DNA of 23,062 nucleotides from assembly GCA_011967385.1 (NCBI GenBank), contig GCA_011967385.1_4516.2; one strand, written 5' to 3'. The notes beneath the pieces were generated by a model. The model was not told where the DNA came from and ran no database searches. It saw nothing but the letters and a program-made list of their open reading frames with translations. Position numbers and translations under genes: made by a program. This DNA comes from a phage. This document shows, in pieces, positions 502 through 21,967 of this stretch (position 1 is its first letter; each line of letters begins with the position of its first letter).

Positions 502-761
502 TTAAAATATTCTCGCAGTTGGTCAAATCCACCAATGTGACTTCCGTCAGGAGCAAATACTTGAGGCATAGTCAATCCAACTTGTGATTCACGTCCAAGC
601 TTAACCAAAAGCTCAGTAATTTTCTCATCGTCGAACACACCTTTTTCCGGCATAACATTAATGAATTCGAACGGCTGTTTCTTAACAGTCAACAATCGTT
701 TCGCATTATCACAATAAATGCATTTATGAATAGTAGAGTCATACCCGTACACTTTAAACAT
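498..761 (-). CDS. nrdC: Phage thioredoxin/glutaredoxin NrdC (87 aa)
   Basis: MFKVYGYDSTIHKCIYCDNAKRLLTVKKQPFEFINVMPEKGVFDDEKITELLVKLGRESQVGLTMPQVFAPDGSHIGGFDQLREYFK is near-identical to T4 NrdC as I recall it, with a CxxC active site (CIYC). The track start at 779 is TTG; the real ATG at 761-759 is preceded by AAGGA. Confidence 0.9.
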   Translation of the reverse strand: MFKVYGYDSTIHKCIYCDNAKRLLTVKKQPFEFINVMPEKGVFDDEKITELLVKLGRESQVGLTMPQVFAPDGSHIGGFDQLREYFK

Positions 762-1167
762 TATTTTTCCTTTCGTCAATTAAGCAATTAACACCCAATA
801 CAATACATGTAATAAAACCTGTGATACAGATAGAAACCAACAACACTGTACCAAAGAACCAAATCAGGTTATCTTTACTATTTTGTTGAATATCCATCTC
901 GCGAATTTCTATAGCTATCGTATCACCTTTATTCAGAAGCGTATAAAACGATGGTGATACATGCCTGTCAAAAACTCGTCCTTGCTCATCTTTATAGACT
1001 GCAATAAATTCTAATTTAGAATATTTTCCTGTAGATTGGCCTGAGATTAATTCCACTACCTCCACAGGAATTACTTTAGTTTCCATATAAGTATTCTGGC
1101 TGTTCCAAATGAATGGAATAATGGCAAAAACTAAAGCTGCAATAAAACAACGAAGACTATATCTCAT
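754..1167 (-). CDS. Predicted membrane protein (N- and C-terminal hydrophobic segments), nrdC.1 position
   Basis: ATG at 1167-1165 in a TAATG overlap with the upstream stop. Hydrophobic N-terminus (FIAALVFAIIPFIW) and C-terminal TM (LIWFFGTVLLVSICITGFITCIVLG). Confidence 0.65.
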   Translation of the reverse strand: MRYSLRCFIAALVFAIIPFIWNSQNTYMETKVIPVEVVELISGQSTGKYSKLEFIAVYKDEQGRVFDRHVSPSFYTLLNKGDTIAIEIREMDIQQNSKDNLIWFFGTVLLVSICITGFITCIVLGVNCLIDERKNNV

Positions 1168-1472
1168 TATAATGTTCTCTCAAATTTGTGGAAGCATTTA
1201 CGGCATTTCAATTTCAGGTTATCAGTGGTCCAGTTAACCAATTGAACCTGAATAGTTCCACATTCCGGACACGGATGTTTTGCTGCCGATTTGGCAGCAT
1301 TTTCACGTCGTTCAACCATTTTCATTATTTCGTTCCATGCCGGAGGAACGAACTCTTCTTTACCATGAATTTTATCTCGCTGAACAAATTCAATCTTTGA
1401 ACTATCGTCAATAAACTTAACTAAGCTGTGATTAGTGTTCATATCAATATCCTCTAAAAGACGTAGTTTCAT
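1167..1472 (-). CDS. Zinc-ribbon protein (CPEC...CRKC), function unknown
   Basis: TAATG overlap at both ends. C-terminal four-Cys ribbon: HPCPECGTIQVQLVNWTTDNLKLKCRKCFHKF. Confidence 0.65.
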   Translation of the reverse strand: MKLRLLEDIDMNTNHSLVKFIDDSSKIEFVQRDKIHGKEEFVPPAWNEIMKMVERRENAAKSAAKHPCPECGTIQVQLVNWTTDNLKLKCRKCFHKFERTL

Positions 1473-2422
1473 TATAACACCTCAATGGCATTTCGTAAAC
1501 CATCCGCTTTCGCATTCAGAGCTTTTAACGATTTAGTTTGTTCTTTAATCTGGGCTTCGACTTCTTTCAGACGAGATTTGAGATATTCGCGTTCTTCTCT
1601 TAAGTTATCAACTTTTTCTGCTTTAGGCTCTTTAATAGGCTTAGGTTTATATGTATTAGGGTTCTTCAACTTAATTTGAATGCGAGAACTGAATAACATC
1701 GAACCGTTATCTTCGGTTTCACTGTGCATTTCTACCACGTCCATGATTCTTAACATCATGCGAAGTTTATAAGACAGCGAACGAACGGTTTTATTGTGCT
1801 TCTTAATTTCTTCAGCTTTCATGGTACCGAGATTACGTGAGTAGTAATAAGGAACCTGGATATCAATTGACAATGATGCGTTACCATTACCAGTTGGTTT
1901 GAATACTGCAGTAACCCAATCTTTAACATGAACTTTATTTGTACGATCATCGCCGCCTGTGAATAATTTACATGAATGTTTAAAAAGCATATTCACTTGG
2001 TTATTGAATTCACAAGCAAATTTATCAGCAAATTTAGTTTCAGGAATGGTAGAGAACCAATCAGCCAAATGAGTCTTTTTAACATCGTTAATAATAGTAA
2101 ATTCAACCAAATCAGTTTTAGATGTCACAGATTTAATAAAGCTCGGCTTCATAAAGTTTTTAATGTTATCGCGAGCTACAGTAGAAGATAATAAACGAGA
2201 ACGTTTGAACCATTGAAGCAGTGTCCCTAATGAATGAGAATACGCATTCTGAGTATCTTTACAGATATGGTTTTCTTGGCCTGTGTATGTACCAAAATCG
2301 CGAAGAATACCACTTACTACATCTCGGTGTGGAACATCAAATCCTAGTGCACCAACGGCGCGCTGGGCATGAACGTTAGCGATAAGACCGGCAAAGTATT
2401 CAATGTAATGTGAACGTGTCAT
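1472..2422 (-). CDS. Hypothetical protein, 316 aa, with C-terminal Lys/Glu-rich coiled-coil tail
   Basis: ATG at 2422, SD GAGAGG, own promoter at 2451-2480. The C-terminus (KPKPIKEPKAEKVDNLREEREYLKSRLKEVEAQIKEQTKSLKALNAKADGLRNAIEVL) looks coiled-coil. Confidence 0.7.
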   Translation of the reverse strand: MTRSHYIEYFAGLIANVHAQRAVGALGFDVPHRDVVSGILRDFGTYTGQENHICKDTQNAYSHSLGTLLQWFKRSRLLSSTVARDNIKNFMKPSFIKSVTSKTDLVEFTIINDVKKTHLADWFSTIPETKFADKFACEFNNQVNMLFKHSCKLFTGGDDRTNKVHVKDWVTAVFKPTGNGNASLSIDIQVPYYYSRNLGTMKAEEIKKHNKTVRSLSYKLRMMLRIMDVVEMHSETEDNGSMLFSSRIQIKLKNPNTYKPKPIKEPKAEKVDNLREEREYLKSRLKEVEAQIKEQTKSLKALNAKADGLRNAIEVL

Positions 2423-2450
2423 AATATTTTCCTCTCGTTAAGATAGATTC

Positions 2451-2480
2451 ATTATACTCCAACCATCCTTGGTTGTAAAC
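2451..2480 (-). promoter_or_regulatory. Sigma70-type early promoter (GTTTAC-N18-TATAAT)
   Basis: Minus strand: -35 GTTTAC (2480-2475), -10 TATAAT (2456-2451), upstream of the ATG at 2422. Confidence 0.55.
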
Positions 2481-2484
2481 TGAT

Positions 2485-3441
2485 TTATGATTTTAATGCA
2501 TTCATTGCGTTAAAAAGTTTAGAGTACTGCAACTGGAGATTGGTCACCACCTGTTGAGCATCACGAAGCTTAGCTTGTGCCTTGTCAAGTTCAACGGATA
2601 GTTGGTCTACAGTAGCCTTGATTTGATTGTAATGATAATCTTCAGCCGGAAGAAGGTCATTAGAAACATTTAGTTTTACTGCCGACAGTTTGCACACATT
2701 TGGCAAACCTTTAAACATACCAGATTGTGCTGGAGAATATGCGTCTAGAACCTCTGCATTACCGACTGGTGTTGCTGTAATATTACCTTCAAACAATGCA
2801 TTTTCCTTTTTAAGATTTTGATAGTATTCAGAGTCTTTGTGCCACCATGGTGCAGGAACCTTTTTACCAATAGATACACGAGCCTGGATAGCGATATGGC
2901 CCTTATTCTTGATAGGGTTGATAATATTAAGCTCACGAGAATAAATTGCTTTAATCTGGTGGATATTATCACCTAACACTTCCAACGCTTGGTGGAATAC
3001 ACGAGCAACGTTATCATTCTTAGGTTTATACGTAAGAGTGAACTCATTCTCACTGATAACCATGATTTCTAACTTATCGTGAGTATATTTCAAATGTTTC
3101 ATGTTAATTGCTTGAGGACGAATACGAGAAGCAATGGCCATCAGATTGTTAAGGTTATTCCGGAACTGCTTAGCGAAATATTGTCCTTCACCACCAATAC
3201 AAAAATTACGAAGTTTCTGTTTGGCCAGTAAACGACTGAACTCACCGTTTTTAATGAACTCTTTAACGGGAGTGTTAGTAACACATTCAAATTGAGTAAA
3301 CTTACGAGAAGTAATCCCATAATACGAACAGATTTCCTCAATCTCTTCAGGAGTCTTTACAGGCATACGGATAGGATTAGGTCCTGGAGTATATGCGTTC
3401 GAGGTAAATTCTTTGATAAGTTCTCTACGTGTAATAGCCAT
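2485..3441 (-). CDS. Hypothetical protein, 318 aa, with C-terminal coiled-coil
   Basis: ATG at 3441. The promoter/leader 3467-3497 duplicates the one upstream of the previous gene. C-terminus is Q/L-rich helical (LDKAQAKLRDAQQVVTNLQLQYSKLFNAMNALKS). Confidence 0.7.
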   Translation of the reverse strand: MAITRRELIKEFTSNAYTPGPNPIRMPVKTPEEIEEICSYYGITSRKFTQFECVTNTPVKEFIKNGEFSRLLAKQKLRNFCIGGEGQYFAKQFRNNLNNLMAIASRIRPQAINMKHLKYTHDKLEIMVISENEFTLTYKPKNDNVARVFHQALEVLGDNIHQIKAIYSRELNIINPIKNKGHIAIQARVSIGKKVPAPWWHKDSEYYQNLKKENALFEGNITATPVGNAEVLDAYSPAQSGMFKGLPNVCKLSAVKLNVSNDLLPAEDYHYNQIKATVDQLSVELDKAQAKLRDAQQVVTNLQLQYSKLFNAMNALKS

Positions 3442-3467
3442 TTTATATTCCTCATGTTGAAAAATTT

Positions 3468-3497
3468 ATTATACTCCAACCATCCTTGGTTGTACAT
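3468..3497 (-). promoter_or_regulatory. Early promoter-like element with degenerate -35 (ATGTAC-N18-TATAAT)
   Basis: About 27 nt (TTATACTCCAACCATCCTTGGTTGTA) identical to the 2451-2480 promoter/leader. Confidence 0.4.
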
Positions 3498-4492
3498 CAT
3501 TCCTTAAGAAGTTTTACTACCTGAATAAGATTAGCTCGTTCTGTTTTATTTTTACCGTTCAATCCGGCCAATCGCGAGATTTCATCGTCAGTTTGTTGAA
3601 TAGTTACATTAAGTTCATTAATCAAAGCTTCAAAGTATTTGATTTGCTCAGCATGTTTTGATTCAAATTTCTGAACCGGAATAACGTCTTGGTTCAGTTC
3701 ATCAATAAGGTCTTTAAGAGCATCTTCTTGGTTGATATCATATTCAACTTCTTTTATTTCTTCAACGAGCTCGTCTTTATATCTAACGTCTTTTAGTCCT
3801 GGTGCTGGTCCTGAAATCTCTTCTTTAAGAGTACAAACATATCCAATACGGTATCCAATGCCGTCTCGCTTGATATCAACTTCGTCGATAAATCCGCAAT
3901 GTTTAAGTCCAGAGCCGATTATGTCAAAATATCCTTGACGTCGTCCTTCAAACGTTACACGAACTACTAAGACAGTTTTGCCACCAACCTTTTGAAGCTC
4001 GCATTTATAAAAGTCTGTTGAACCTGAATAACGTGGATGAGTTTTAAAGTTCATCTGACGATCTAGGCCCATTTGTAAACGTGCTGTTACGGCCATAAAA
4101 CGTGTTTGGTTCTCGTTAAGATGAGCAACAATCCATTTCAAAGGCATTTTACACTGTTCACGACCGAACAAGTCAGTACGTCCTAGATTACGCAGGATGT
4201 TGTTAGAGTTAATCATCGACAGAACGTTAAGTTTATTCAGCGCGCTGAAGATTCCATCAGCCATTGATTTTCCATAACCTTTACACGCTTTAATAAGTGC
4301 TCGCGGCAGATTAGTATAGATTTCAGACGGCATATGAAAATCAAATTTACTAGTCAGTAATTGATGAACTTGGATAGCAATTTGCTCATAATTAAGTGCT
4401 CTGCGATCGTTATGGTCTTTAAACCACACTTTAATCTGTGAAGCACATAAACCGTTAATTTCATGTTTTACCGCATCAGATGTAATGCTCAT
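3497..4492 (-). CDS. Hypothetical protein, 331 aa, with C-terminal acidic coiled-coil
   Basis: ATG at 4492, SD GAGGAAA. Third of three consecutive ~320 aa proteins that share a coiled-coil tail. Confidence 0.7.
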   Translation of the reverse strand: MSITSDAVKHEINGLCASQIKVWFKDHNDRRALNYEQIAIQVHQLLTSKFDFHMPSEIYTNLPRALIKACKGYGKSMADGIFSALNKLNVLSMINSNNILRNLGRTDLFGREQCKMPLKWIVAHLNENQTRFMAVTARLQMGLDRQMNFKTHPRYSGSTDFYKCELQKVGGKTVLVVRVTFEGRRQGYFDIIGSGLKHCGFIDEVDIKRDGIGYRIGYVCTLKEEISGPAPGLKDVRYKDELVEEIKEVEYDINQEDALKDLIDELNQDVIPVQKFESKHAEQIKYFEALINELNVTIQQTDDEISRLAGLNGKNKTERANLIQVVKLLKE

Positions 4493-4527
4493 AACTATTT
4501 CCTCAGATTGAATTGGAACTCAAAACC

Positions 4528-4552
4528 ATTATAACCCGTCCTTGGGTAAAGC
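4528..4552 (-). promoter_or_regulatory. Possible MotA-dependent middle promoter (aCGCTTTA box, 13 nt, TATAAT)
   Basis: Minus strand aaaCGCTTTAcccaaggacgggtTATAATgg. No -35 hexamer at sigma70 spacing, but a MotA-box-like GCTTTA sits about 13 nt upstream of -10. Confidence 0.35.
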
Positions 4553-4554
4553 GT

Positions 4555-5082
4555 TTATGCGTGAACCGTCTTTAAACGTTCTTCAAATTTCCGAAGAGTA
4601 CTAATACGTTCTGCTTTCTGTTTTGTGTAGTTTGCAATACGTTCTGAAGTGAGAGCGTATCGTTCGTTTACTGTTTCTTTCATGAAGTCAGGGATTTCAC
4701 GAGAAGCTTTAATTTCATCAAACTTATCGAGTACTGCCTGGTCTTCAGCAATTAAATTTTCGTACATCTCGATATCTTTCTTGATGAAGTCGATATCTTC
4801 CTGGGTTACTTTGGATAAACGAGATGCTTTATCCTTTTTGTACTGCTCGTTAGTTTCACGAGACCAGAATAATGTACGTTTTTTGTTAGTGTTTTTGTAG
4901 ACTTCCACAATTCCAACTGAATCGATGATAACAATCCAATTCCAGCGAGATTTGAAAATCTGACCTCCGTCCACGGTAATCTCGTTACCATAAGCAACGT
5001 CATTAAAGAACTTGCTTTGTGCTTCAGATTTAAATTTACCGTCGTTATAATTTACCAGGTTGAAAATATCTTTAGCGTTCAT
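4555..5082 (-). CDS. Hypothetical protein, 175 aa
   Basis: ATG at 5082 preceded by GGAGG; early promoter at 5110-5138. Confidence 0.65.
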   Translation of the reverse strand: MNAKDIFNLVNYNDGKFKSEAQSKFFNDVAYGNEITVDGGQIFKSRWNWIVIIDSVGIVEVYKNTNKKRTLFWSRETNEQYKKDKASRLSKVTQEDIDFIKKDIEMYENLIAEDQAVLDKFDEIKASREIPDFMKETVNERYALTSERIANYTKQKAERISTLRKFEERLKTVHA

Positions 5083-5109
5083 GTTTTACCTCCAGTAGTT
5101 GATAGGTCT

Positions 5110-5138
5110 ATAATAACATAACCATAGACCTTGTAAAC
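5110..5138 (-). promoter_or_regulatory. Sigma70-type early promoter (GTTTAC-N17-TATTAT)
   Basis: Upstream of the ATG at 5082. The spacer contains an 8-bp perfect inverted repeat AGGTCTAT/ATAGACCT (5104-5131). Confidence 0.5.
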
Positions 5139-5140
5139 AA

Positions 5141-5416
5141 CTAAAAGAAACTTTTTTCGGTATTTTTTCCACTGAACCAAACAGACTTCGGGATTTTTTG
5201 TAATTTTTCAGATTTAAGTTTCTCTTCCTGTTCTTTCTTATACGCATCCTTGTCGTACTGGAGCATCTCTATGGCATTCTTTTGCAAATGATCTAAGGTA
5301 ATTAAGGCTTTAGTTTTTCCTTTCAAGGAAGAGTCCTGGCGAACCTCCTCGCTATATTGTTCTGTTGCACTAATCATACGATGGGCATATAATTCACGAC
5401 TGGCTTGGATATTCAT
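5141..5416 (-). CDS. Hypothetical protein, 91 aa
   Basis: ATG at 5416 with SD GAGGA inside the 3' end of the upstream ATPase gene. Confidence 0.55.
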   Translation of the reverse strand: MNIQASRELYAHRMISATEQYSEEVRQDSSLKGKTKALITLDHLQKNAIEMLQYDKDAYKKEQEEKLKSEKLQKIPKSVWFSGKNTEKSFF

Positions 5417-5423
5417 AATTTCC

Positions 5424-6404
5424 TCATTTCAGTAAAGTTACTTCGGAGATTTCCTCCCAACCATCTTTATCAGTTGAAATAAAATCTGCTACATAAAGAG
5501 CCGTACGTAATGATACATTGCGAAGACGAGATATGTTAGCCTTCATCCAGGACAATGCTTTGTACGTTTCTGCATCCGTCAGGCCACGTTTCTGCATCAT
5601 GTCAGTAGATAATATTACATCTTCAACTCGGACCATAATCTCTTCATTAGAGTGTACTCCAAGGTCCAAATACACTGAACGAGATACTAAAGCTTGAAGG
5701 TGTGGAGCAAGTTTCGAACCGCGTTCTAACTCTTTATCGATATCAACGTTTGTAATGAAAACGATAGTACCTTCAAACTCAAATTCTTTATCGATACCCT
5801 TATCATCAAGATAAGATGATGCAGTGCTCCAGCAAACTTTGCGTTTATCGCCAGTATCTAATGCGGCTTTAAGAAGGTTCAAGATGTCCATATCTGAGAA
5901 TACATCAACGTCATCGATTAAGAGAACGCTGTCTGCATCACGGTTGAGCCAAAGTTGTTCGTAAAGGCCAATACCAGAGATTTTGCCATTAATGCTTTTG
6001 TATTTGATGAAACCATTATCATTAGCATTATTAAGCGCTTTATCCAGAGAATACGTCTTACCAATACCTGCTGCACCTGAAATAATGAGTGAACGAATTT
6101 TGCCATCGATAATGCCATTCGTCATCATGTTCATTACTTTAAAGCGTTTGTTGATACGAGTTTTCATATCTTCAGCGTTTTCAACAACTGCAACTGGTGA
6201 TGTCTCAACTCCTTCCATTACGATGTCTGATTTGAAGACCCATACTCCACGTTCAGAACCATCAATCATAACGAAAATTTTACCGTCACCTAAGTGGGAA
6301 CATTCAGGATTAAGCTTTGCCGGGAACCATGTCTTTGTGGCAACATAAGAACCAGAGATTTCGTTATTACGATAGATACCTTTTTTGATTTGAACGTTGA
6401 ACAT
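5424..6404 (-). CDS. P-loop NTPase, AAA+-like, with a ~110 aa N-terminal extra domain
   Basis: Walker A LIISGAAGIGKTYS, Walker B VLLIDDVD, sensor-1-like IVFITN. The track start at 6416 is TTG; the ATG at 6404 has SD GGAG. Early promoter at 6444-6472. Confidence 0.75.
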   Translation of the reverse strand: MFNVQIKKGIYRNNEISGSYVATKTWFPAKLNPECSHLGDGKIFVMIDGSERGVWVFKSDIVMEGVETSPVAVVENAEDMKTRINKRFKVMNMMTNGIIDGKIRSLIISGAAGIGKTYSLDKALNNANDNGFIKYKSINGKISGIGLYEQLWLNRDADSVLLIDDVDVFSDMDILNLLKAALDTGDKRKVCWSTASSYLDDKGIDKEFEFEGTIVFITNVDIDKELERGSKLAPHLQALVSRSVYLDLGVHSNEEIMVRVEDVILSTDMMQKRGLTDAETYKALSWMKANISRLRNVSLRTALYVADFISTDKDGWEEISEVTLLK

Positions 6405-6443
6405 TTTATTCTCCAAATTTACTCATTTCGTTTCGATAGGTCT

Positions 6444-6472
6444 ATAATAACATGTTTAAAGCAAAAGTAAAC
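6444..6472 (-). promoter_or_regulatory. Sigma70-type early promoter (GTTTAC-N17-TATTAT)
   Basis: Upstream of the ATPase gene start at 6404. Confidence 0.5.
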
Positions 6473-6474
6473 AA

Positions 6475-6693
6475 TTATTTGCGACGAGATTTTTTGGTAA
6501 GAGGTTGAAAGAACATTGCTTTACCAGCAGGAGTCAAAGTGACTCGTAATGCGTTACCGATTCCTAAGGATGCTTTAACTAGACCTTTAGCTTTCAGTTC
6601 ACCGAATGCTTGACGTTGGTCTGCATCACGAGTGTTAACCATAAGACCTTTATCACCAGCTTCACGAATCATTTCTAACATTTTGGTTTTCAT
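6475..6693 (-). CDS. Small basic protein (72 aa), possible winged-helix DNA/RNA binder
   Basis: The track start at 6750 is GTG and lies in the promoter -35; the ATG at 6693 has a strong SD AGAGGAGAA. MKTKMLEMIREAGDKGLMVNTRDADQRQAFGELKAKGLVKASLGIGNALRVTLTPAGKAMFFQPLTKKSRRK. Confidence 0.55.
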   Translation of the reverse strand: MKTKMLEMIREAGDKGLMVNTRDADQRQAFGELKAKGLVKASLGIGNALRVTLTPAGKAMFFQPLTKKSRRK

Positions 6694-6721
6694 TTTGTTC
6701 TCCTCTTGTTTTGATAGGTCT

Positions 6722-6750
6722 ATAATAACATATCCTAAAAGCATGTACAC
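6722..6750 (-). promoter_or_regulatory. Early promoter-like element (GTGTAC-N17-TATTAT)
   Basis: Upstream of the ATG at 6693. Confidence 0.4.
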
Positions 6751-6777
6751 TACTTTTTAAAAATATTTTGACCCCCT

Positions 6778-6797: not shown

Positions 6798-7787
6798 TCA
6801 TTTATAGTATGAATTGTGGTTTTCTAAGTAGACTTGCTCAAGGAAGTCATCCCAGAAACTCATATCTACTTTTTGCTGCATACCATTCTTAGCGGCTTGT
6901 TCTGCGGCATGTTCAACTTGGTCGACGATATCTTCTAGGAATTCCTGTACGGTTTTAAACGTATGTTTACCAAGCTTAACATCGAGAATAAATGGAGCAT
7001 CCTGAAGCGGGTAAACCAGGTCGCCGGTTTTGTAAATTTCTAAGAGCTGAAGTCCACCACGGCATGCGTGACTCAATGCTTTCCAATCAATACCTTCATT
7101 GGCTTCTGCCTTACGAGCACGTTCACCATAGTTCTCTTCCAGTTTAACCAGGATGGCATTGAACTCTTTGTTAGTTAACGTATCTTGGAATTTACGGTCT
7201 AACAGACTATAGAATGTTTGCTTACCTGTTTTCTCGTTTTCAGTTTCAACCCATGAAGCAAATTCACCTACAGGCAGAACATTCTTCATATGTGATAAAC
7301 GAATTACTGCACCGTTATCAAAGTATTGTCCCCATTCATTAGAACGTTTAAGGGCTTGGCGAAGAACAGCCAGACGAGAACCCTTGACGCCATATTTAGA
7401 AGCTTGCTTACGGACATACCCTAAATAAGATTTCATGTTAGTGGTATAGAAACGAGACCTGTTGTCTTGAATATACTTCCATACATCAGGCAAATCAGAT
7501 TTAACTACTAGACCTGGTGGAGTGTGAAGCATATCTAATGCGACAGTTTCACCATCTGCAGCTAGTTTAAAGAAATATTTGAGACTATACAACTCATGGT
7601 CCACGTCGTCTTTTGTGTTCTTAGAAGATGTGTTATTCGTGTTCTTGCTCATGTGTTCTTTAACGTTACCGGTCAAAATATCACGAGCATGAGGGACATA
7701 AATTTCTTTAAAATCGACGTCAGATTCAGGAGTAGACGTTCCATAAAGGTGGCTACCAAAGTAGCCTTTCATAATTGTTTTCATCAT
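6798..7787 (-). CDS. Pol-beta-superfamily nucleotidyltransferase-like protein (GS...DVD motif) with helical C-terminal domain
   Basis: N-terminal GSHLYGTSTPESDVDF fits the NTase signature hG[GS]-x9-13-Dh[DE]h, with a possible third acidic residue in VALDMLH. ATG at 7787 overlaps the upstream stop (ATGA). Followed by a hairpin at 6778-6797. Confidence 0.75.
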   Translation of the reverse strand: MMKTIMKGYFGSHLYGTSTPESDVDFKEIYVPHARDILTGNVKEHMSKNTNNTSSKNTKDDVDHELYSLKYFFKLAADGETVALDMLHTPPGLVVKSDLPDVWKYIQDNRSRFYTTNMKSYLGYVRKQASKYGVKGSRLAVLRQALKRSNEWGQYFDNGAVIRLSHMKNVLPVGEFASWVETENEKTGKQTFYSLLDRKFQDTLTNKEFNAILVKLEENYGERARKAEANEGIDWKALSHACRGGLQLLEIYKTGDLVYPLQDAPFILDVKLGKHTFKTVQEFLEDIVDQVEHAAEQAAKNGMQQKVDMSFWDDFLEQVYLENHNSYYK

Positions 7788-8914: not shown

Positions 8915-9019
8915 TACCATACTCGCTTCAATAAGATTCATTACACCATTTACCATGTTATACGTAAACATCGGATAATTGTATTGTACTACAACATAAG
9001 CGATAAGCAAAAGTTTCAT
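8915..9019 (-). CDS. Possible small hydrophobic peptide (34 aa)
   Basis: Not in the ORF track (too short). ATG at 9019 preceded by GGAGAA, just downstream of promoter 9048-9077. MKLLLIAYVVVQYNYPMFTYNMVNGVMNLIEASMVK. Confidence 0.3.
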
Positions 9020-9047
9020 TTTGTTCTCCGTTTGTTTTGGTAGGACT

Positions 9048-9077
9048 ACTATAACATAGTCCTACCAAGGTGTAAAC
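9048..9077 (-). promoter_or_regulatory. Sigma70-type early promoter (GTTTAC-N18-TATAGT) with palindrome
   Basis: A 10-bp perfect inverted repeat GGTAGGACTA/TAGTCCTACC (9039-9066) is centred on the -10 hexamer. Confidence 0.5.
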
Positions 9078-9540: not shown

Positions 9541-9570
9541 AAAAAGCCCCAACCTTTCGGAAGGGGCTTT
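9541..9570 (-). terminator. Intrinsic terminator (minus strand), hairpin plus U-tract
   Basis: Minus RNA AAAGCCCC-UUCCGAAAGGUU-GGGGCUUUUUUGU, immediately 3' of the gene ending at 9573. The inner loop can form CC-GAAA-GG. Confidence 0.7.
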
Positions 9571-10162: not shown

Positions 10163-10164
10163 CA

Positions 10165-10192
10165 AAAAGCCCCAACCTTTCGGAAGGGGCTA
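10165..10192 (-). terminator. Intrinsic terminator (minus strand), second copy of the same hairpin
   Basis: Minus RNA GCCCC-UUCCGAAAGGUU-GGGGCUUUUUGUA, immediately 3' of the rI stop (10198). The hairpin core is identical to the one at 9545-9568. Confidence 0.7.
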
Positions 10193-13748: not shown

Positions 13749-13776
13749 TTTGATTTCTCCTCTAGTTGACAGGTCT

Positions 13777-13805
13777 ATAGTAACACAACTAGAGGAGAAG
13801 TAAAC
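13777..13805 (-). promoter_or_regulatory. Sigma70-type early promoter (GTTTAC-N17-TACTAT)
   Basis: Upstream of regB. Confidence 0.5.
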
Positions 13806-13809
13806 TACT

Positions 13810-14025
13810 TTATTGATAAAATGGAGTTAAAGCCCAAGATTCTTTAGATACCATATCGGCGAAATGCCTCATCTCTTCGATTTGGCGACGACGCTGGTCA
13901 GCATAGTCTTCTTCGCCTTCTTCTTTACAATCTTCAAGGTCTTCTTCAAGATACTTTAAGTATTCACTACAAATTTTGTTGACCTTTTCCTGGAAGTCCA
14001 ATAACCCAGTAATAGTAGAAGCCAT
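13810..14025 (-). CDS. Small acidic hypothetical protein, 71 aa (vs.3 position)
   Basis: ATG at 14025 in a TAATG overlap with the upstream stop. Confidence 0.5.
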   Translation of the reverse strand: MASTITGLLDFQEKVNKICSEYLKYLEEDLEDCKEEGEEDYADQRRRQIEEMRHFADMVSKESWALTPFYQ

Positions 14026-15891: not shown

Positions 15892-16221
15892 TTATACTCT
15901 AGGCTTTTGAGCTTGTTTGGTATTGGATTCCCACGCTGCTTTGGTAATTTTGTTAGCGGCATAGCCAAAGGCATTAGATAGAACACCTTTAGAGTTGAAT
16001 ACATCCAATCCAATAAGTACACCTGCTGCGTTAAATTTAGGAGCAAAGTACGCATTAGTTTTAGAAAGAGCTTTTTTCAATTCAGGGTCTTGAACCAAGC
16101 CATCAAAAACGCCTTTACCATTTACTTTATATGTTACTTTGGGATTTTTGCCTTCTTCGATAGCAGCTTTCTGTTCCGCAGATAATGTAACTTCAGTGAT
16201 AAACTCTTGATATGTTTTCAT
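15892..16221 (-). CDS. Internal-protein-like head protein with capsid targeting sequence (109 aa)
   Basis: N-terminus MKTYQEFITEV matches the T4 IP capsid-targeting consensus (MKTYQEFIAEA). SD AAGGA. Basic, Lys-rich body. Confidence 0.7.
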   Translation of the reverse strand: MKTYQEFITEVTLSAEQKAAIEEGKNPKVTYKVNGKGVFDGLVQDPELKKALSKTNAYFAPKFNAAGVLIGLDVFNSKGVLSNAFGYAANKITKAAWESNTKQAQKPRV

Positions 16222-16262
16222 ATGTTTCCTTTAAATGTAAATAGGCCTAAGTATAGGCCTTA

Positions 16263-16841
16263 TTAATTACCACGGGCTGCATTAGCAACGGCGTAAGCGT
16301 ACTGAACATTAGCGTCTTTAAACGTACCTTTAGAGGTATCTATTTCTGCCTTAAAGCCGCCTTTAGCCATAACATCGGCAAATTCTTTACGGAAAGCCAT
16401 TGCGTCAAGACCTTTCCATGATGATTTATGCTTGGCAAATTCAAGACCAGCGTAGTTGACAGCTTTAGCCAATTTATTATCAATGACCCATTTACCTGCT
16501 TTAGGCACAAACTTCGGGCCTTTTTGTTTAGAGAACAGTTTTAAATTCCAGCGACGAAGGTCACTGTCGGCTTTAACAAAAGCTGCGTCTAAGTTACTAG
16601 CAACAACATCTTCAATATGAGCAAATTTAAGACCATCAACTTCAATATTTAGATCGTTACGCCAGCGAAGTCCTTCCCAAGCGAAGGCTTTAAAGTCGGA
16701 AGCCTTTGTAGCTAAGTACCGTTCAATAGGAGCAGTTTTAGGGTCAAAGCCGTTTCCGCCACGATAATTCCACTCGTCCTTATTAATGCCTTGGACTTTT
16801 CCTGCAAAGGCCTCGGCGATAAATTCTTTATATGTTTTCAT
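16263..16841 (-). CDS. Internal-protein-like head protein with capsid targeting sequence (192 aa; IPIII-sized)
   Basis: N-terminus MKTYKEFIAEA. Length is close to T4 IPIII (~194 aa) but homology is unconfirmed. Own promoter at 16872-16901. Confidence 0.7.
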   Translation of the reverse strand: MKTYKEFIAEAFAGKVQGINKDEWNYRGGNGFDPKTAPIERYLATKASDFKAFAWEGLRWRNDLNIEVDGLKFAHIEDVVASNLDAAFVKADSDLRRWNLKLFSKQKGPKFVPKAGKWVIDNKLAKAVNYAGLEFAKHKSSWKGLDAMAFRKEFADVMAKGGFKAEIDTSKGTFKDANVQYAYAVANAARGN

Positions 16842-16871
16842 TTTTGTTTCCTTGTTTGTTTTGATAGAGTA

Positions 16872-16901
16872 ATTATACCATATTAATACTTAAGCGTAAA
16901 C
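16872..16901 (-). promoter_or_regulatory. Sigma70-type early promoter (GTTTAC-N18-TATAAT)
   Basis: Upstream of the 192-aa IP-like gene. Confidence 0.5.
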
Positions 16902-16904
16902 AAT

Positions 16905-17165
16905 TTAAGCTTTACCGCCAGAAATAATTCCGAAGTTGTTAAAATCGTATCCAATATCATCAGCATCTACTTTAGGACTTGCTACAACATGAACAATTTC
17001 ACGACGTTTTGCATAGGTGTTGATTTCTTTACCATCGCCACCTAAGAAAGAATACCCATTACGTTTTAATGAGCCAAAGTCTTCGGCATCACCAACGAAA
17101 GCTTTAACTTTAAATTTGGGGTCTTTGGCATCTGCTTCAGTGATAAATTCTTGATACATTTTCAT
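16905..17165 (-). CDS. Internal-protein-like head protein with capsid targeting sequence (86 aa)
   Basis: N-terminus MKMYQEFITEA. Lies 6 nt downstream of the denV stop. Confidence 0.65.
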   Translation of the reverse strand: MKMYQEFITEADAKDPKFKVKAFVGDAEDFGSLKRNGYSFLGGDGKEINTYAKRREIVHVVASPKVDADDIGYDFNNFGIISGGKA

Positions 17166-17171
17166 TTTTCC

Positions 17172-17585
17172 TTAGTAAATTGATTTACCATAGTATTTGT
17201 ACCAAGTCGGACGTTGAGCAATTTTTTCATCTAAACGTGCTTGACTTATCGCAATGGACGCTTCGGACGGGACATAATTATTACGAAATTCTACAGGAAT
17301 GTCGGAAATATCCTGGACTGTCGTGTCCTTGATTTTGAAACCACGTTTCAAGCATTCAGTGATTAGCTCGATTTGACGTAAACGTAAAAATTCGAGTTTG
17401 TCGTAAAAGAATGTTACGTGACCCGTGCCTAAGATAAATGTTGGAGAGATTTTAAAATCCTTTACACGTTTACCATTTTGAACATGTTTACGGACTGCAC
17501 CAAATACGCGTGGTAATTCACGATACTCAGCCATAAGATGTTGGTCGGTCAGTTCAGAAACAAGTGTTAAATTGATACGAGTCAT
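17172..17585 (-). CDS. denV: Endonuclease V (pyrimidine-dimer DNA glycosylase/AP lyase)
   Basis: [35 protein letters not shown]...[19 protein letters not shown]...[11 protein letters not shown] is near-identical to T4 DenV as I recall it. The track start at 17597 is TTG; the ATG at 17585 has SD GGAGGA. Confidence 0.93.
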
Positions 17586-17612
17586 AATTTCCTCCAAGTA
17601 GTTGATAGATGT

Positions 17613-17641
17613 ATAGTATCAAAACCCTTGGAGGAAGTAAA
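17613..17641 (-). promoter_or_regulatory. Sigma70-type early promoter (GTTTAC-N17-TACTAT)
   Basis: Upstream of denV. The spacer contains the inverted repeat TTGATA...TATCAA (17606-17626). Confidence 0.5.
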
Positions 17642-17643
17642 CA

Positions 17644-17925
17644 CTATTTTTCTGAAGCGCCTGAAATATATTTTTCAAGACGTTGTTTCATCAGCGAGCC
17701 GTTCTTAGCGATTTCTTCCGGTTTATCGCACATACGCAACAGTGCTTCAAGCTTAACGATATCGCTGGTACGTTCAAATTTGCGAGTATCTATCTTACTG
17801 GCAAGTTCAGAAATACGTGCTAATAGACTTTCAGCTTCGACCAAAGCTGCACCTAGCTTAGTTGCAAATGTGTCAGTGGCTTCGTTAAGAATAGATTCTG
17901 ATAAAAATTCACTATATGTTTTCAT
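17644..17925 (-). CDS. Internal-protein-like head protein with capsid targeting sequence (93 aa)
   Basis: N-terminus [10 protein letters not shown]. The track start at 17940 is TTG; the ATG at 17925 is in an ATGA overlap with the lysozyme stop. Confidence 0.7.
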
Positions 17926-18410
17926 ATATACGCTTTCCAAGTTCCTGTTTTAAATGTTGAGATTACGCGTTTCGCGCGATTAGGTGTCTGACGATACCAT
18001 TTAGATTGGGCTAGATTTACTGCCGCTTCGTCCCAACGTTTCTGTTGAAGCATACGAAGAGAATTAGTAAAACCGGCGACGCCTGCTACACCCATTTGGA
18101 AGACCATATTGACTAATGCACATCGACGAACTGCATCTAAAGAATCATACACTGGTTTAAGTTTAGCATTACCCAAGATTCCGCGAACGGCTTTATCAAC
18201 ATCTTCATTAAATAGCTTTTCAGCCTCATCAAGGGTAATTGTACCGTTGCATTTACGACCGATCATTCTATCAAGTTCAGCTTTAGCTACAGCTAAAGAC
18301 GGGTTCTTTGTTACTAAATGGCCTATGCCAATCGTCCAAAAGCCTTCAGTGTCTTTGTATAAAGACAGTCTAAGACCTTCGTCATTACGAAGCATTTCAA
18401 ATATATTCAT
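17922..18410 (-). CDS. e: Endolysin, T4-type lysozyme (muramidase)
   Basis: [32 protein letters not shown]...[16 protein letters not shown]...[40 protein letters not shown] matches T4 lysozyme with catalytic E11/D20/T26 equivalents. The track start at 18422 is GTG; the ATG at 18410 has SD GGGAGG. Confidence 0.95.
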
Positions 18411-20304: not shown

Positions 20305-20610
20305 TTATTTTCCTCGACATTCTTTAATGAAATTTTCTAGATTGGTAGATTCAATAGCTTTTTTACGAGCTTCTGCATGTTCTTCTTCAGACAATTTACA
20401 TTTATAATTAACCCAGACGTTATGGTCAAAACTAGTCGTGGCATATAATAACAAAGCCCCGACGAATAATAAAAATGGTGATAAGAATACAAAACCAGGA
20501 ACACCATCCATATCGTAAGCCTTTTGTAATACTGCAACAGAAAGAGTTGCGTAAAAAAGTGATGCAAATATTGTTAAAAGACCAATTCGGTTGGTTTCGC
20601 CTAATTTCAT
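20305..20610 (-). CDS. Small membrane protein (2 TM), 101 aa
   Basis: TM segments IGLLTIFASLFYATLSVAVL and FVFLSPFLLFVGALLLYA. SD GAGGAGA. Promoter at 20639-20668. Confidence 0.6.
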   Translation of the reverse strand: MKLGETNRIGLLTIFASLFYATLSVAVLQKAYDMDGVPGFVFLSPFLLFVGALLLYATTSFDHNVWVNYKCKLSEEEHAEARKKAIESTNLENFIKECRGK

Positions 20611-20638
20611 AATATTCTCCTCATGTTTTAATAGGACT

Positions 20639-20668
20639 ACTATAACATAGTCCTATAATTGTGTAAAC
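20639..20668 (-). promoter_or_regulatory. Sigma70-type early promoter (GTTTAC-N18-TATAGT) with palindrome
   Basis: 9-bp perfect inverted repeat ATAGGACTA/TAGTCCTAT (20631-20656) centred on the -10. Confidence 0.5.
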
Positions 20669-21665: not shown

Positions 21666-21905
21666 TTAAATTTCATGACATGCGATATCATATTCATCCC
21701 AGAGGTCATCGTGTGAAGCCTCTACCAATGGAACGATTGTACCGTTTATGTCTTCATTATAAGGACAAATTGTACAGTGCGCATCTTCGAATCGTATGCC
21801 TTTGTGTTCAGATTTTTTATAACGCATGTCGAATATCTTTGCAAACTTTTCACGAGTAATAGTTTTAGCAACTACTTCAGTTCCGATACTTTCGTAATAA
21901 ATCAT
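21666..21905 (-). CDS. Small hypothetical protein (79 aa from the ATG at 21905)
   Basis: The ATG at 21905 has SD GGAG; the track ATG at 21917 has no SD. Contains a CTICP...C...H pattern. Confidence 0.5.
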   Translation of the reverse strand: MIYYESIGTEVVAKTITREKFAKIFDMRYKKSEHKGIRFEDAHCTICPYNEDINGTIVPLVEASHDDLWDEYDIACHEI

Positions 21906-21933
21906 TGTGGACTCCATTTAATTTGATAGGACT

Positions 21934-21962
21934 ACTATAACATAGCCCTATCTTGTTGTAAA
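21934..21962 (-). promoter_or_regulatory. Sigma70-type early promoter (GTTTAC-N17-TATAGT) with imperfect palindrome
   Basis: ATAGGACTA...TAGCCCTAT (21926-21950), one mismatch. Confidence 0.45.
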
Positions 21963-21967
21963 CTGTT

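Follow-up and report, generated by a model that had tools for sequence, protein, structure and literature searches.

Why should three consecutive genes of a T-even phage, each encoding a protein of some 320 residues that ends in a coiled coil and each preceded by a version of the same promoter repeat, look unlike one another when their products are compared? The question is raised by a stretch of phage DNA of 23,062 nucleotides (NCBI GenBank assembly GCA_011967385.1, contig GCA_011967385.1_4516.2), the whole of which we analysed and refer to as the window. Over its full length the window is 95-97% identical to genomes of Mosigvirus (RB69-like T-even phages), and the region of interest is the variable nrdC-tk region, with its genes on the minus strand. 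The reading that we favour, with moderate confidence, is that the three genes are the Mosigvirus orthologues of nrdC.3, nrdC.5 and nrdC.6, that they form an array of diverged paralogues carried on promoter and stem-loop cassettes, and that their products would have a counter-defence function. Little of it goes beyond what was known before or what known families imply. We refer to the genes as A, B and C:

1472-2422, minus strand: gene A, the nrdC.3 orthologue, 316 amino acids, with a head of about 250 residues, a linker and a coiled-coil tail.
2485-3441, minus strand: gene B, the nrdC.5 orthologue, 318 amino acids, a member of Pfam family DUF7235.
3497-4492, minus strand: gene C, the nrdC.6 orthologue, 331 amino acids.

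The three open reading frames (ORFs), of 316-331 amino acids, are present as a preliminary description of the window had given them. That description had named T4 nrdC.3 to nrdC.5 as their counterparts; these are in fact nrdC.3, nrdC.5 and nrdC.6, which are also the names that the genes bear in RB69. T4 has four such genes consecutively (nrdC.3, nrdC.4, nrdC.5 and nrdC.6); nrdC.4 is absent from the window, and the gene order of the array is conserved with respect to T4 and RB69. The product of gene A is 97.5% identical to RB69 NrdC.3 and 55-56% identical to T4 NrdC.3 over the full length, and is assigned to phrog_1435, with PF26897 precomputed on all relatives; the stop of gene A and the start codon of nrdC.2 overlap (TAATG). 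The product of gene B is 94% identical to RB69 NrdC.5 and 23-24% identical to T4 NrdC.5, and it matches DUF7235 (PF23882) at E 3e-119 (398 bits; the cut-off is 30), with residues 14-317 aligned to model positions 1-307; T4 NrdC.5 matches the same model end to end (E 5e-126, 420 bits). The product of gene C is 31-33% identical to T4-type NrdC.6 over 92-100% of its length and is assigned to phrog_2257, with PF26899 precomputed. A GAGG-type Shine-Dalgarno (SD) sequence lies 7-9 nucleotides ahead of the ATG in all three genes.

Searches of Pfam, PHROGs, NCBIfam and the PDB gave no function for A, B or C. The array proteins had no match in NCBIfam, and a sequence-profile search of the PDB returned nothing for A or B and just coiled-coil noise for C. 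A scan of IMG/VR with the A profile found 7 loci in all, every one a close relative, and an exhaustive search of 1.8 billion representatives with a profile of the B clade returned two matches, both from that clade, with nothing from the T4 clade at E <= 1e-3. The NrdC.3/.4/.5/.6 array was found in T-even-type enterobacterial phages only.

We note two peculiarities in the existing records of these genes. Many phage records (e.g. ON528725, OM386662 and MN850590; positions 754-5082 of the window) give the label 'thioredoxin' to between five and ten distinct nrdC.x genes, among them A, B and C. None of the three proteins matches a thioredoxin or glutaredoxin model of Pfam or NCBIfam at E <= 1, and no CxxC motif occurs in their sequences; the label seems to have been carried over from the gene symbol nrdC.x, and on hundreds of GenBank entries it is wrong. 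The reference T4 NrdC.6 (L002, 8067-8894), for its part, has 275 amino acids and an unrelated end, NNMMMKFSDYLD, and other T4-type phages have a protein of 295 amino acids with an intact coiled-coil tail. The nrdC.6 of the T4 laboratory strain thus seems to be a frameshifted or truncated copy.

Whether A, B and C descend from one gene cannot be read from pairwise comparison. BLASTP finds no similarity among them (best E 0.25), so that at this level the preliminary description was correct in calling their N-terminal domains divergent. The three belong to three separate Pfam and PHROG families, tail-only hidden Markov models (HMMs) gave zero cross-family matches between the NrdC families, and direct profile comparisons of the A with the B family and of the B with the C family were weak or not significant. 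Moreover, it is known that unrelated ORFs can be brought together by PeSLs, elements of hyperplastic regions in T4-type genomes that are made up of a promoter, a stem-loop and an SD (Arbiol et al. 2010, PMC2839356). All of this is in keeping with three unrelated genes, each with a C-terminal coiled coil, that were juxtaposed by PeSL shuffling and make up a collection rather than a set of paralogues. Profile comparisons of the wider NrdC families nevertheless make such a collection improbable. In a first pass the sole link was that between NrdC.3 and NrdC.4. We then compared cleaned profiles by hhalign, from which the chimeric protein P0033 had been taken out and which proteins of Salmonella phage SG1, a Dhakavirus and ESCO47 had enriched. 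NrdC.3 and NrdC.4 aligned with 97% probability (E 4.8e-11, 204 columns; heads only, E 4e-11), and single-sequence phmmer also connects these two families, down to 2e-9. NrdC.4 and NrdC.5 aligned with 89.5% probability (E 2e-6) over 252 colinear columns, and their heads alone gave E 1e-4 with a score of 38 against a shuffle maximum of 19. Because NrdC.3 is linked to NrdC.4, and NrdC.4 to NrdC.5, A and B would be homologous by transitivity, and these profiles point to distant paralogues bridged by NrdC.4.

NrdC.6 is harder to place. A merged NrdC.3, NrdC.4 and NrdC.5 profile aligned with it colinearly at a score of 33.9 (E 7e-4, probability 26%), and the alignment spans two motifs that are visible by eye in all of the families, FKxSRLLS..L.NF and F......L...AS[RK]L..GD. 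The score lies far above its controls: column shuffles averaged 13-14 and 189 of 190 scored lower, the reversed profile scored 18 and unrelated neighbour families scored 13-15. The remaining shuffle gave an aberrant 138, much like an outlier of 133 in an earlier family comparison; we regard both as artefacts of degenerate shuffled alignments, and the empirical p is still no better than about 0.005. On these comparisons C probably belongs to the same family as A and B. The families also have a common length, domain order and type of promoter hairpin, an N-terminal motif, M-x-TR-x-x-[YL]-I-x-x-F, is common to A, T4 NrdC.3, NrdC.4 and B, and for A and B the helices and strands of the core, around the two motifs, are predicted in matching order, in models with mean confidence (pLDDT) of 54 and 40. 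An off-register match of the NrdC.3 profile to NrdC.5 (48 bits, hhalign P 3e-4), which gave the appearance of a domain permutation, was rejected as an artefact of the presence of the P0033 protein in the NrdC.3 alignment.

The array is therefore probably a set of old paralogues with one architecture. The preliminary description had proposed a diversifying paralogous cassette with variable effector heads. Its first element is borne out firmly for NrdC.3, NrdC.4 and NrdC.5 and more weakly for NrdC.6, and in the rate of divergence as well: identity to T4 is 56% for A, 23% for B and 31% for C, as against 91% for NrdC, 83% for NrdC.8 and 75% for NrdC.10, so that A, B and C evolve much faster than their neighbours. 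Its second element, if it is taken to mean unrelated heads, is not supported, and the heads are probably diverged versions of one ancestral domain. The grouping of NrdC.3 to NrdC.6 as one diverged family with a plan of head, linker and coiled coil seems to be new relative to the literature searched. If they are indeed one family, a single structure or mechanism (for example, that of NrdC.5 with the defence protein Dsr1, discussed below) would inform all four genes.

The C-terminal tails, which had been described as coiled-coil-like, are so in all three proteins. We scanned each protein for heptads in one unbroken register with hydrophobic a and d positions and tested the result against 100 shuffles per protein:

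1475-1624, minus strand: coiled-coil tail of A, residues 267-316, seven unbroken heptads, with 0 of 100 shuffles as good.
2488-2646, minus strand: coiled-coil tail of B, residues 266-318, 7.5 unbroken heptads, with 0 of 100 shuffles as good.
3500-3661, minus strand: tail of C, residues 278-331, in which heptads from 278 to 311 are followed by a second short helical stretch, with 2 of 100 shuffles as good.

Each tail thus contains the at least four to five heptads free of proline that we took to define a coiled coil (shuffle p <= 0.02, the unbroken heptads beating 98-100% of shuffles), and the T4 orthologues have the same heptad pattern. AlphaFold gives A a single long helix at residues 275-315 (pLDDT 74-83) and B a single long helix at 266-317; these tail helices are the only parts of the two models with pLDDT of about 60-83, and the variable linker is modelled without regular structure. 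Within each orthologue group the coiled coil is the best-conserved part. Mosigvirus and T4 orthologues are 63% identical in the tail and 55% in the head for A, 37% and 20% for B, and 58% and 25% for C, and the tail of A has 29 residues that are invariant across 13 orthologues. A loose C-terminal ending, L-x-N/Q-A/V-h-x-h-L-K, is common to the tails (GLRNAIEVL, KLFNAMNALKS and NLIQVVKLLKE). The tails are thus alike in architecture, that is, in coiled-coil character, and what had been called a shared tail is not one common sequence module, given the tail HMMs without cross-matches. The common plan would comprise a fast-evolving alpha/beta head of about 250 residues, a variable linker and a heptad coiled coil of 45-55 residues. 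We had also considered a merged MAFFT alignment of three families as input for AlphaFold, which was rejected since the middle of the alignment is unreliable; searches of BFVD with Foldseek, using the A and B models, returned only the self-family at template modelling (TM) scores of 0.2-0.27, plus noise. Lastly, tblastn matches to the tail only, in phages ACG-C40 and Pinarejo, suggested that tails had been shuffled onto other heads; this was rejected, as the matches are remnants of deletions.

What lies upstream of the three genes bears on how the array is expressed and how it changes. The preliminary description had reported a duplicated promoter and leader, with about 27 identical nucleotides upstream of the first two genes and a shortened version upstream of the third. 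The repeat is real, with an exact length of 26 nucleotides, and the duplicated element belongs to a type that is already known, the PeSL:

2423-2484, minus strand: PeSL upstream of A, with a -35 box TTTACA at 2474-2479, a hairpin CAACCA-AGGA-TGGTTG at 2460-2475, a -10 box TATAAT at 2451-2456, a leader and an SD.
3442-3496, minus strand: PeSL upstream of B, with a -35 box TGTACA at 3491-3496, a hairpin at 3477-3492 and a -10 box TATAAT at 3468-3473.
4493-4554, minus strand: PmSL, the middle-promoter version, upstream of C, with GCTTTA at 4547-4552, a hairpin ACCC-AAGGAC-GGGT at 4534-4547 and a -10 box TATAAT at 4528-4533.

The 26-mer, TTATACTCCAACCATCCTTGGTTGTA, occurs exactly twice in the window (2452-2477 and 3469-3494); no further copy was found there even at 3 mismatches, and none in 100 shuffles at <= 3 mismatches. 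The repeat extends to 36 nucleotides at 92% identity. Upstream of C lies the variant CCAAGGACGG, the shortened version of the preliminary description, and CCAAGGANGG occurs three times in the window (2463-2472, 3480-3489 and 4536-4545) against 0.1 expected, each time upstream of one of the three genes. In the B cassette the -35 box starts directly after the stop codon of C, and the hairpin is identical to that of the A cassette. The predicted A promoter, TTTACA-17-TATAAT, matches the consensus at 11 of 12 positions and ranks first among the promoter-like sites of the first 8 kb; that of B, TGTACA-17-TATAAT, matches at 10 of 12, and the two sites are the best two in those 8 kb. The C promoter, cGCTTTA-13 nt-TATAAT, resembles a Mot box (TGCTT) with C instead of T as its first base, and this form is annotated as a T4 middle (MotA-type) promoter in phage SA79RD. 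Upstream of A and B we thus find a sigma-70-type promoter with a 17-nucleotide spacer, an associated stem-loop, and an SD and ATG, all within a hyperplastic region, and upstream of C a Mot-like box at the proper spacing from a -10 box with a stem-loop between them, as in the PmSLs described by Comeau et al. 2014 (PMC4122927); MotA dependence is predicted for the latter. The claim that each gene has its own promoter agrees with these predicted sites, and A, B and C would each form an early or middle cassette.

It might be objected that such a repeat is simply the generic early promoter. The hexamers are generic; the hairpin in the spacer is specific to the cluster, because its core occurs neither elsewhere in the window, where other promoter repeats carry different hairpins, nor at T4 positions 1-44000, where early promoters abound. 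Within the 79 kb examined, hairpins with an AGGA loop are confined to the genes nrdC.3 to nrdC.7. T4 has CCACA-AGGA-TGTGG upstream of nrdC.4, AGCCA-AGGA-TGGCT upstream of nrdC.3 and TTATACCA-AGGA-TGGTATAA upstream of nrdC.7, and the ESCO47 version of the C-cassette hairpin is perfect (ACCCA-AGGA-TGGGT). Among 8 distinct hairpin variants, 85% of cells in the stem are paired, as against 64% in shuffles, and 4 of 6 pairs have double changes. The covariation score is 0.494 versus 0.118, none of 500 shuffles reaches it, and it collapses when the register is slid. The hairpin is also the minimum-free-energy structure in 6 of 6 copies folded. A GGAU lies in its loop, and upstream of A and B the stem is succeeded by GGAG; RegB cleaves GGAG and, now and then, GGAU. 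It is possible that the spacer core, CCAAGGATGG, instead acts as a site in double-stranded DNA, either the operator of a regulator or a preferred site of recombination: its 10 nucleotides are nearly invariant and lie between the -35 box and the -10 box, a place from which a bound protein would govern initiation, the core is not part of transcripts made from the promoter itself, the hairpin is thermodynamically unremarkable, and Arbiol et al. speculated that PeSL stem-loops are targets of a DNA-binding recombination protein (PMC2839356). We nevertheless consider a duplex site unlikely. The flanks differ between copies yet remain complementary, with pairs 2-4 from the base of the stem being A-U, C-G, G-C or U-A, and such alternative complementary pairs are expected of a folded single strand and not of a duplex binding site. 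A hairpin that folds as RNA, with a role at that level, is thus the interpretation we would prefer. A cluster-specific AGGA-loop hairpin with covariation seems to be new relative to the literature searched, and the covariation makes the function of this subtype testable.

One further promoter-like site lies at the end of gene A and points away from the array:

1471-1499, minus strand: early-promoter-like site that lies within the final nine codons of A and points at nrdC.2, TTTACG-17-TATAAT with a TG extension.

The site overlaps the junction between the stop of A and the start of nrdC.2, and at the equivalent position in SA79RD a T4-early-like promoter is annotated. Because the match lies in the last codons of A, the strong conservation of the ending GLRNAIEVL may reflect a double constraint, on protein and promoter.

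Recombination between PeSL copies has been proposed as a way in which genes are shuffled (PMC2839356), and the array offers a natural example. Gene B is bracketed by direct repeats, one at 2442-2477 and the other within 3442-3496. In ESCO47, another Mosigvirus, there are C-like and A-like genes without B, separated by a single chimeric PeSL, the left side of which corresponds to the B-upstream copy, including the 3' end of C, and the right side to the A-upstream leader. This element is the product expected of a crossover inside the repeat and, read at the sequence level, shows that a cassette can be gained or lost by recombination. It is a clear case, in nature, of a cassette lost through a PeSL and, as such, seems to be new relative to the literature searched. 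Other relatives have lost or rearranged members of the array. A Dhakavirus has relatives of NrdC.4, NrdC.5 and NrdC.6, and the stretch of it that was examined showed no NrdC.3; ACG-C40 (L003, 3805-4213) has only nrdC.6 plus remnants, with a deletion from nrdC.5 to nrdC.3; in Pinarejo (L004, 4001-4135) nrdC.6 is deleted and a tail-coding remnant is left; and in one IMG/VR contig nrdC.4 is split. The P0033 protein (from three contigs, the longest of 167 kb) arose by natural fusion, in frame, and joins residues 146-272 of NrdC.5 to the part of NrdC.3 that runs from about residue 141 to the end, with a 6-residue microhomology, KFNKVN/EFNNQVN, at the junction. Across related phages the array thus comprises one to four genes, with deletions and a fusion, and a gene number that varies in this way is typical of dispensable accessory genes.

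What might these proteins do? Expression of T4 nrdC.5 in trans restores infection of cells that carry Dsr1, a sirtuin defence of E. coli ECOR17 (Srikant, Guegler and Laub 2022, PMC9391042). Elsewhere in the same genome stretch, gp49.2 inhibits OLD (PMC13096335) and nrdC.1 inhibits Septu, and bas37_0203 of phage KarlGJung/Bas37 inhibits Druantia type III (preprint 10.1101/2025.11.20.689424). The last protein is not named nrdC.8 in that preprint; it is the nrdC.8 orthologue, and its counterpart in the window adjoins gene C:

4555-5082, minus strand: nrdC.8 orthologue, 175 amino acids, directly upstream of C and 83% identical to bas37_0203.

The array, which lies among genes validated as inhibiting OLD, Septu, Dsr1 and Druantia III, is thus flanked on both sides by genes of validated counter-defence kinds. 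Given these neighbours, the validated family to which B belongs, the dispensability and variable number of the genes and the fast divergence of their heads, we consider it most likely that A, B and C are a set of counter-defence proteins. For B, membership in the family of T4 NrdC.5 makes Dsr1-type sirtuin defence the candidate target. The earlier suggestion of host-targeting early proteins fits what has been found for T4 nrdC.5 against Dsr1; for A, B and C themselves it would hold by extension. If this is true, A, C and T4 nrdC.3, nrdC.4 and nrdC.6 become candidate new anti-defence proteins.

We have also considered that the genes are early accessories of host takeover or housekeeping, acting in transcription or on the nucleoid, the envelope or nucleotide metabolism, and that, at least for A and C, the anti-defence neighbourhood is incidental. 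Our literature search returned no functional data for nrdC.3, nrdC.4 or nrdC.6, the metabolic genes nrdC, nrdD and tk lie in the same region, and coiled-coil tails are widespread across kinds of protein. Such a role is somewhat unlikely, in our view, in the face of an anti-Dsr1 phenotype demonstrated for the family of B, validated anti-defence genes on both sides, dispensable genes that vary in number between close relatives, and heads that diverge far faster than the neighbouring genes, as expected of genes in an arms race.

Under the counter-defence reading, the proteins would be made early in infection as counter-defence factors, in which binding or neutralising one particular immune protein of the host would fall to the variable head, and oligomerisation to the tail. 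The cassettes would serve as promoters for the gene downstream and also as short homology patches for the deletion or insertion of whole genes. A more specific version, in which NrdC.3 to NrdC.6 are a modular counter-defence platform whose tail oligomerises or docks, whose heads each neutralise a different immune protein (Dsr1 in the case of NrdC.5) and whose cassettes are exchanged via the AGGA-loop hairpin, we offer as a tentative proposal that we hold to be rather less probable than its contrary.

Several points weigh against this account. The experiments concern T4 NrdC.5, to which B is only 23-24% identical, and the exhaustive search with the B profile was confined to its own clade, which leaves no wider context to lean on. 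The link to NrdC.6 is one profile comparison at a probability of 26%, with NrdC.4 against NrdC.6 alone giving E 0.03 and NrdC.5 against NrdC.6 not being significant. With tail HMMs that do not cross-match, the tails could have separate origins. The whole AlphaFold2 models of A (from a 29-sequence alignment, pLDDT 54) and B (from a 19-sequence alignment, pLDDT 40) are unreliable and do not structurally demonstrate a common fold. Common descent of the eight hairpin variants inflates the shuffle test, and we take the covariation as supportive rather than conclusive. Finally, at -5 to -9 kcal/mol the hairpin is a weak one, which lacks a U tract and in context does not exceed shuffled sequence in stability; because of this a terminator role, as in the PeSLs of RB49, cannot be assumed, and terminator activity appears doubtful. 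On balance we still hold that an array of diverged nrdC.3, nrdC.5 and nrdC.6 paralogues with a putative counter-defence function is somewhat more probable than the readings set against it.

The window contains other repeats and genes of related kinds. At least two further families of promoter-plus-hairpin repeats, of the AGGTCTAT...ATAGACCT and TAGGACTA...TAGTCCTA types, overlap the -10 box and lie ahead of other small genes across the window:

5099-5157, 6433-6491, 6711-6769 and 13766-13824: promoter-plus-hairpin repeats, first group.
9014-9077, 20605-20668 and 21900-21963: promoter-plus-hairpin repeats, second group.

These repeats are ordinary PeSLs of a different subtype. An exact 28-nucleotide direct repeat, AAAAAGCCCCAACCTTTCGGAAGGGGCT, at 9541-9568 and 10164-10191, 623 nucleotides apart, forms a GC-rich, terminator-like hairpin. 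The nrdC.10 orthologue and nrdC.11 (5424-6416 and 6798-7787, minus strand) encode proteins of about 330 amino acids each; the former has a Walker A motif, GAAGIGKT, the latter is annotated as a nucleotidyltransferase in relatives, and profile comparison found both to be unrelated to the array. A 41-nucleotide repeat with four copies (16192-16232, 16812-16852, 17136-17176 and 17896-17936) forms the starts of four genes, the products of which begin with MKTYQEFI, the capsid-targeting sequence of T4-type internal proteins. We read 16192-17936 as a second diversifying cassette array, with an N-terminal module in common, located beside denV and the lysozyme gene.

Such loci invite comparison with the array. 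Like it, the ip locus of T4 consists of tandem, rapidly diversifying accessory genes that have one short conserved module in common, look unrelated in the rest of their bodies and are shuffled between related phages, and at least one of its members (IPI) counters a host defence. Unlike in the array, the module that they share is a capsid-targeting peptide at the N terminus, clearly identical in sequence from one to another, and the proteins are packaged in the head, whereas the feature that A, B and C have in common is a C-terminal coiled coil that lacks detectable cross-family identity, and their promoters are early or middle ones. A functional likeness is offered by DSAD1, the inhibitor of DSR2 from an SPbeta-type phage that Garb et al. 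are said to have described in 2022, which reportedly neutralises a SIR2-domain defence that depletes nicotinamide adenine dinucleotide (NAD); its role resembles the one that NrdC.5-family proteins may have, and the likeness drawn here is one of function. The cassettes resemble published PeSLs and PmSLs (PMC2839356, PMC4122927) in their intergenic position within a hyperplastic region, their 17-nucleotide spacer or Mot box and -10 box, and their stem-loop, SD and ATG, as well as in direct repeats that bracket a gene and give way to a chimeric single copy in a relative that lacks the gene. Their stem-loop lies between the -35 box and the -10 box, as in one subclass of PeSL (PMC2839356), and differs from the G-run/C-run stems of RB49 and the AGNA/TCNT type of PST in having a stem of 4-8 base pairs and a constant AGGA loop. 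Lastly, B resembles T4 NrdC.5 in matching the same Pfam model, in its relative position between nrdC.6 and nrdC.3/.4, in its plan of head, linker and coiled coil and in its C-terminal SKL-x-NA-x-NAL. It differs from T4 NrdC.5 in being 23-24% identical to it and in belonging to a clade whose profile search misses the T4 clade, and the anti-Dsr1 activity is that of the T4 protein.

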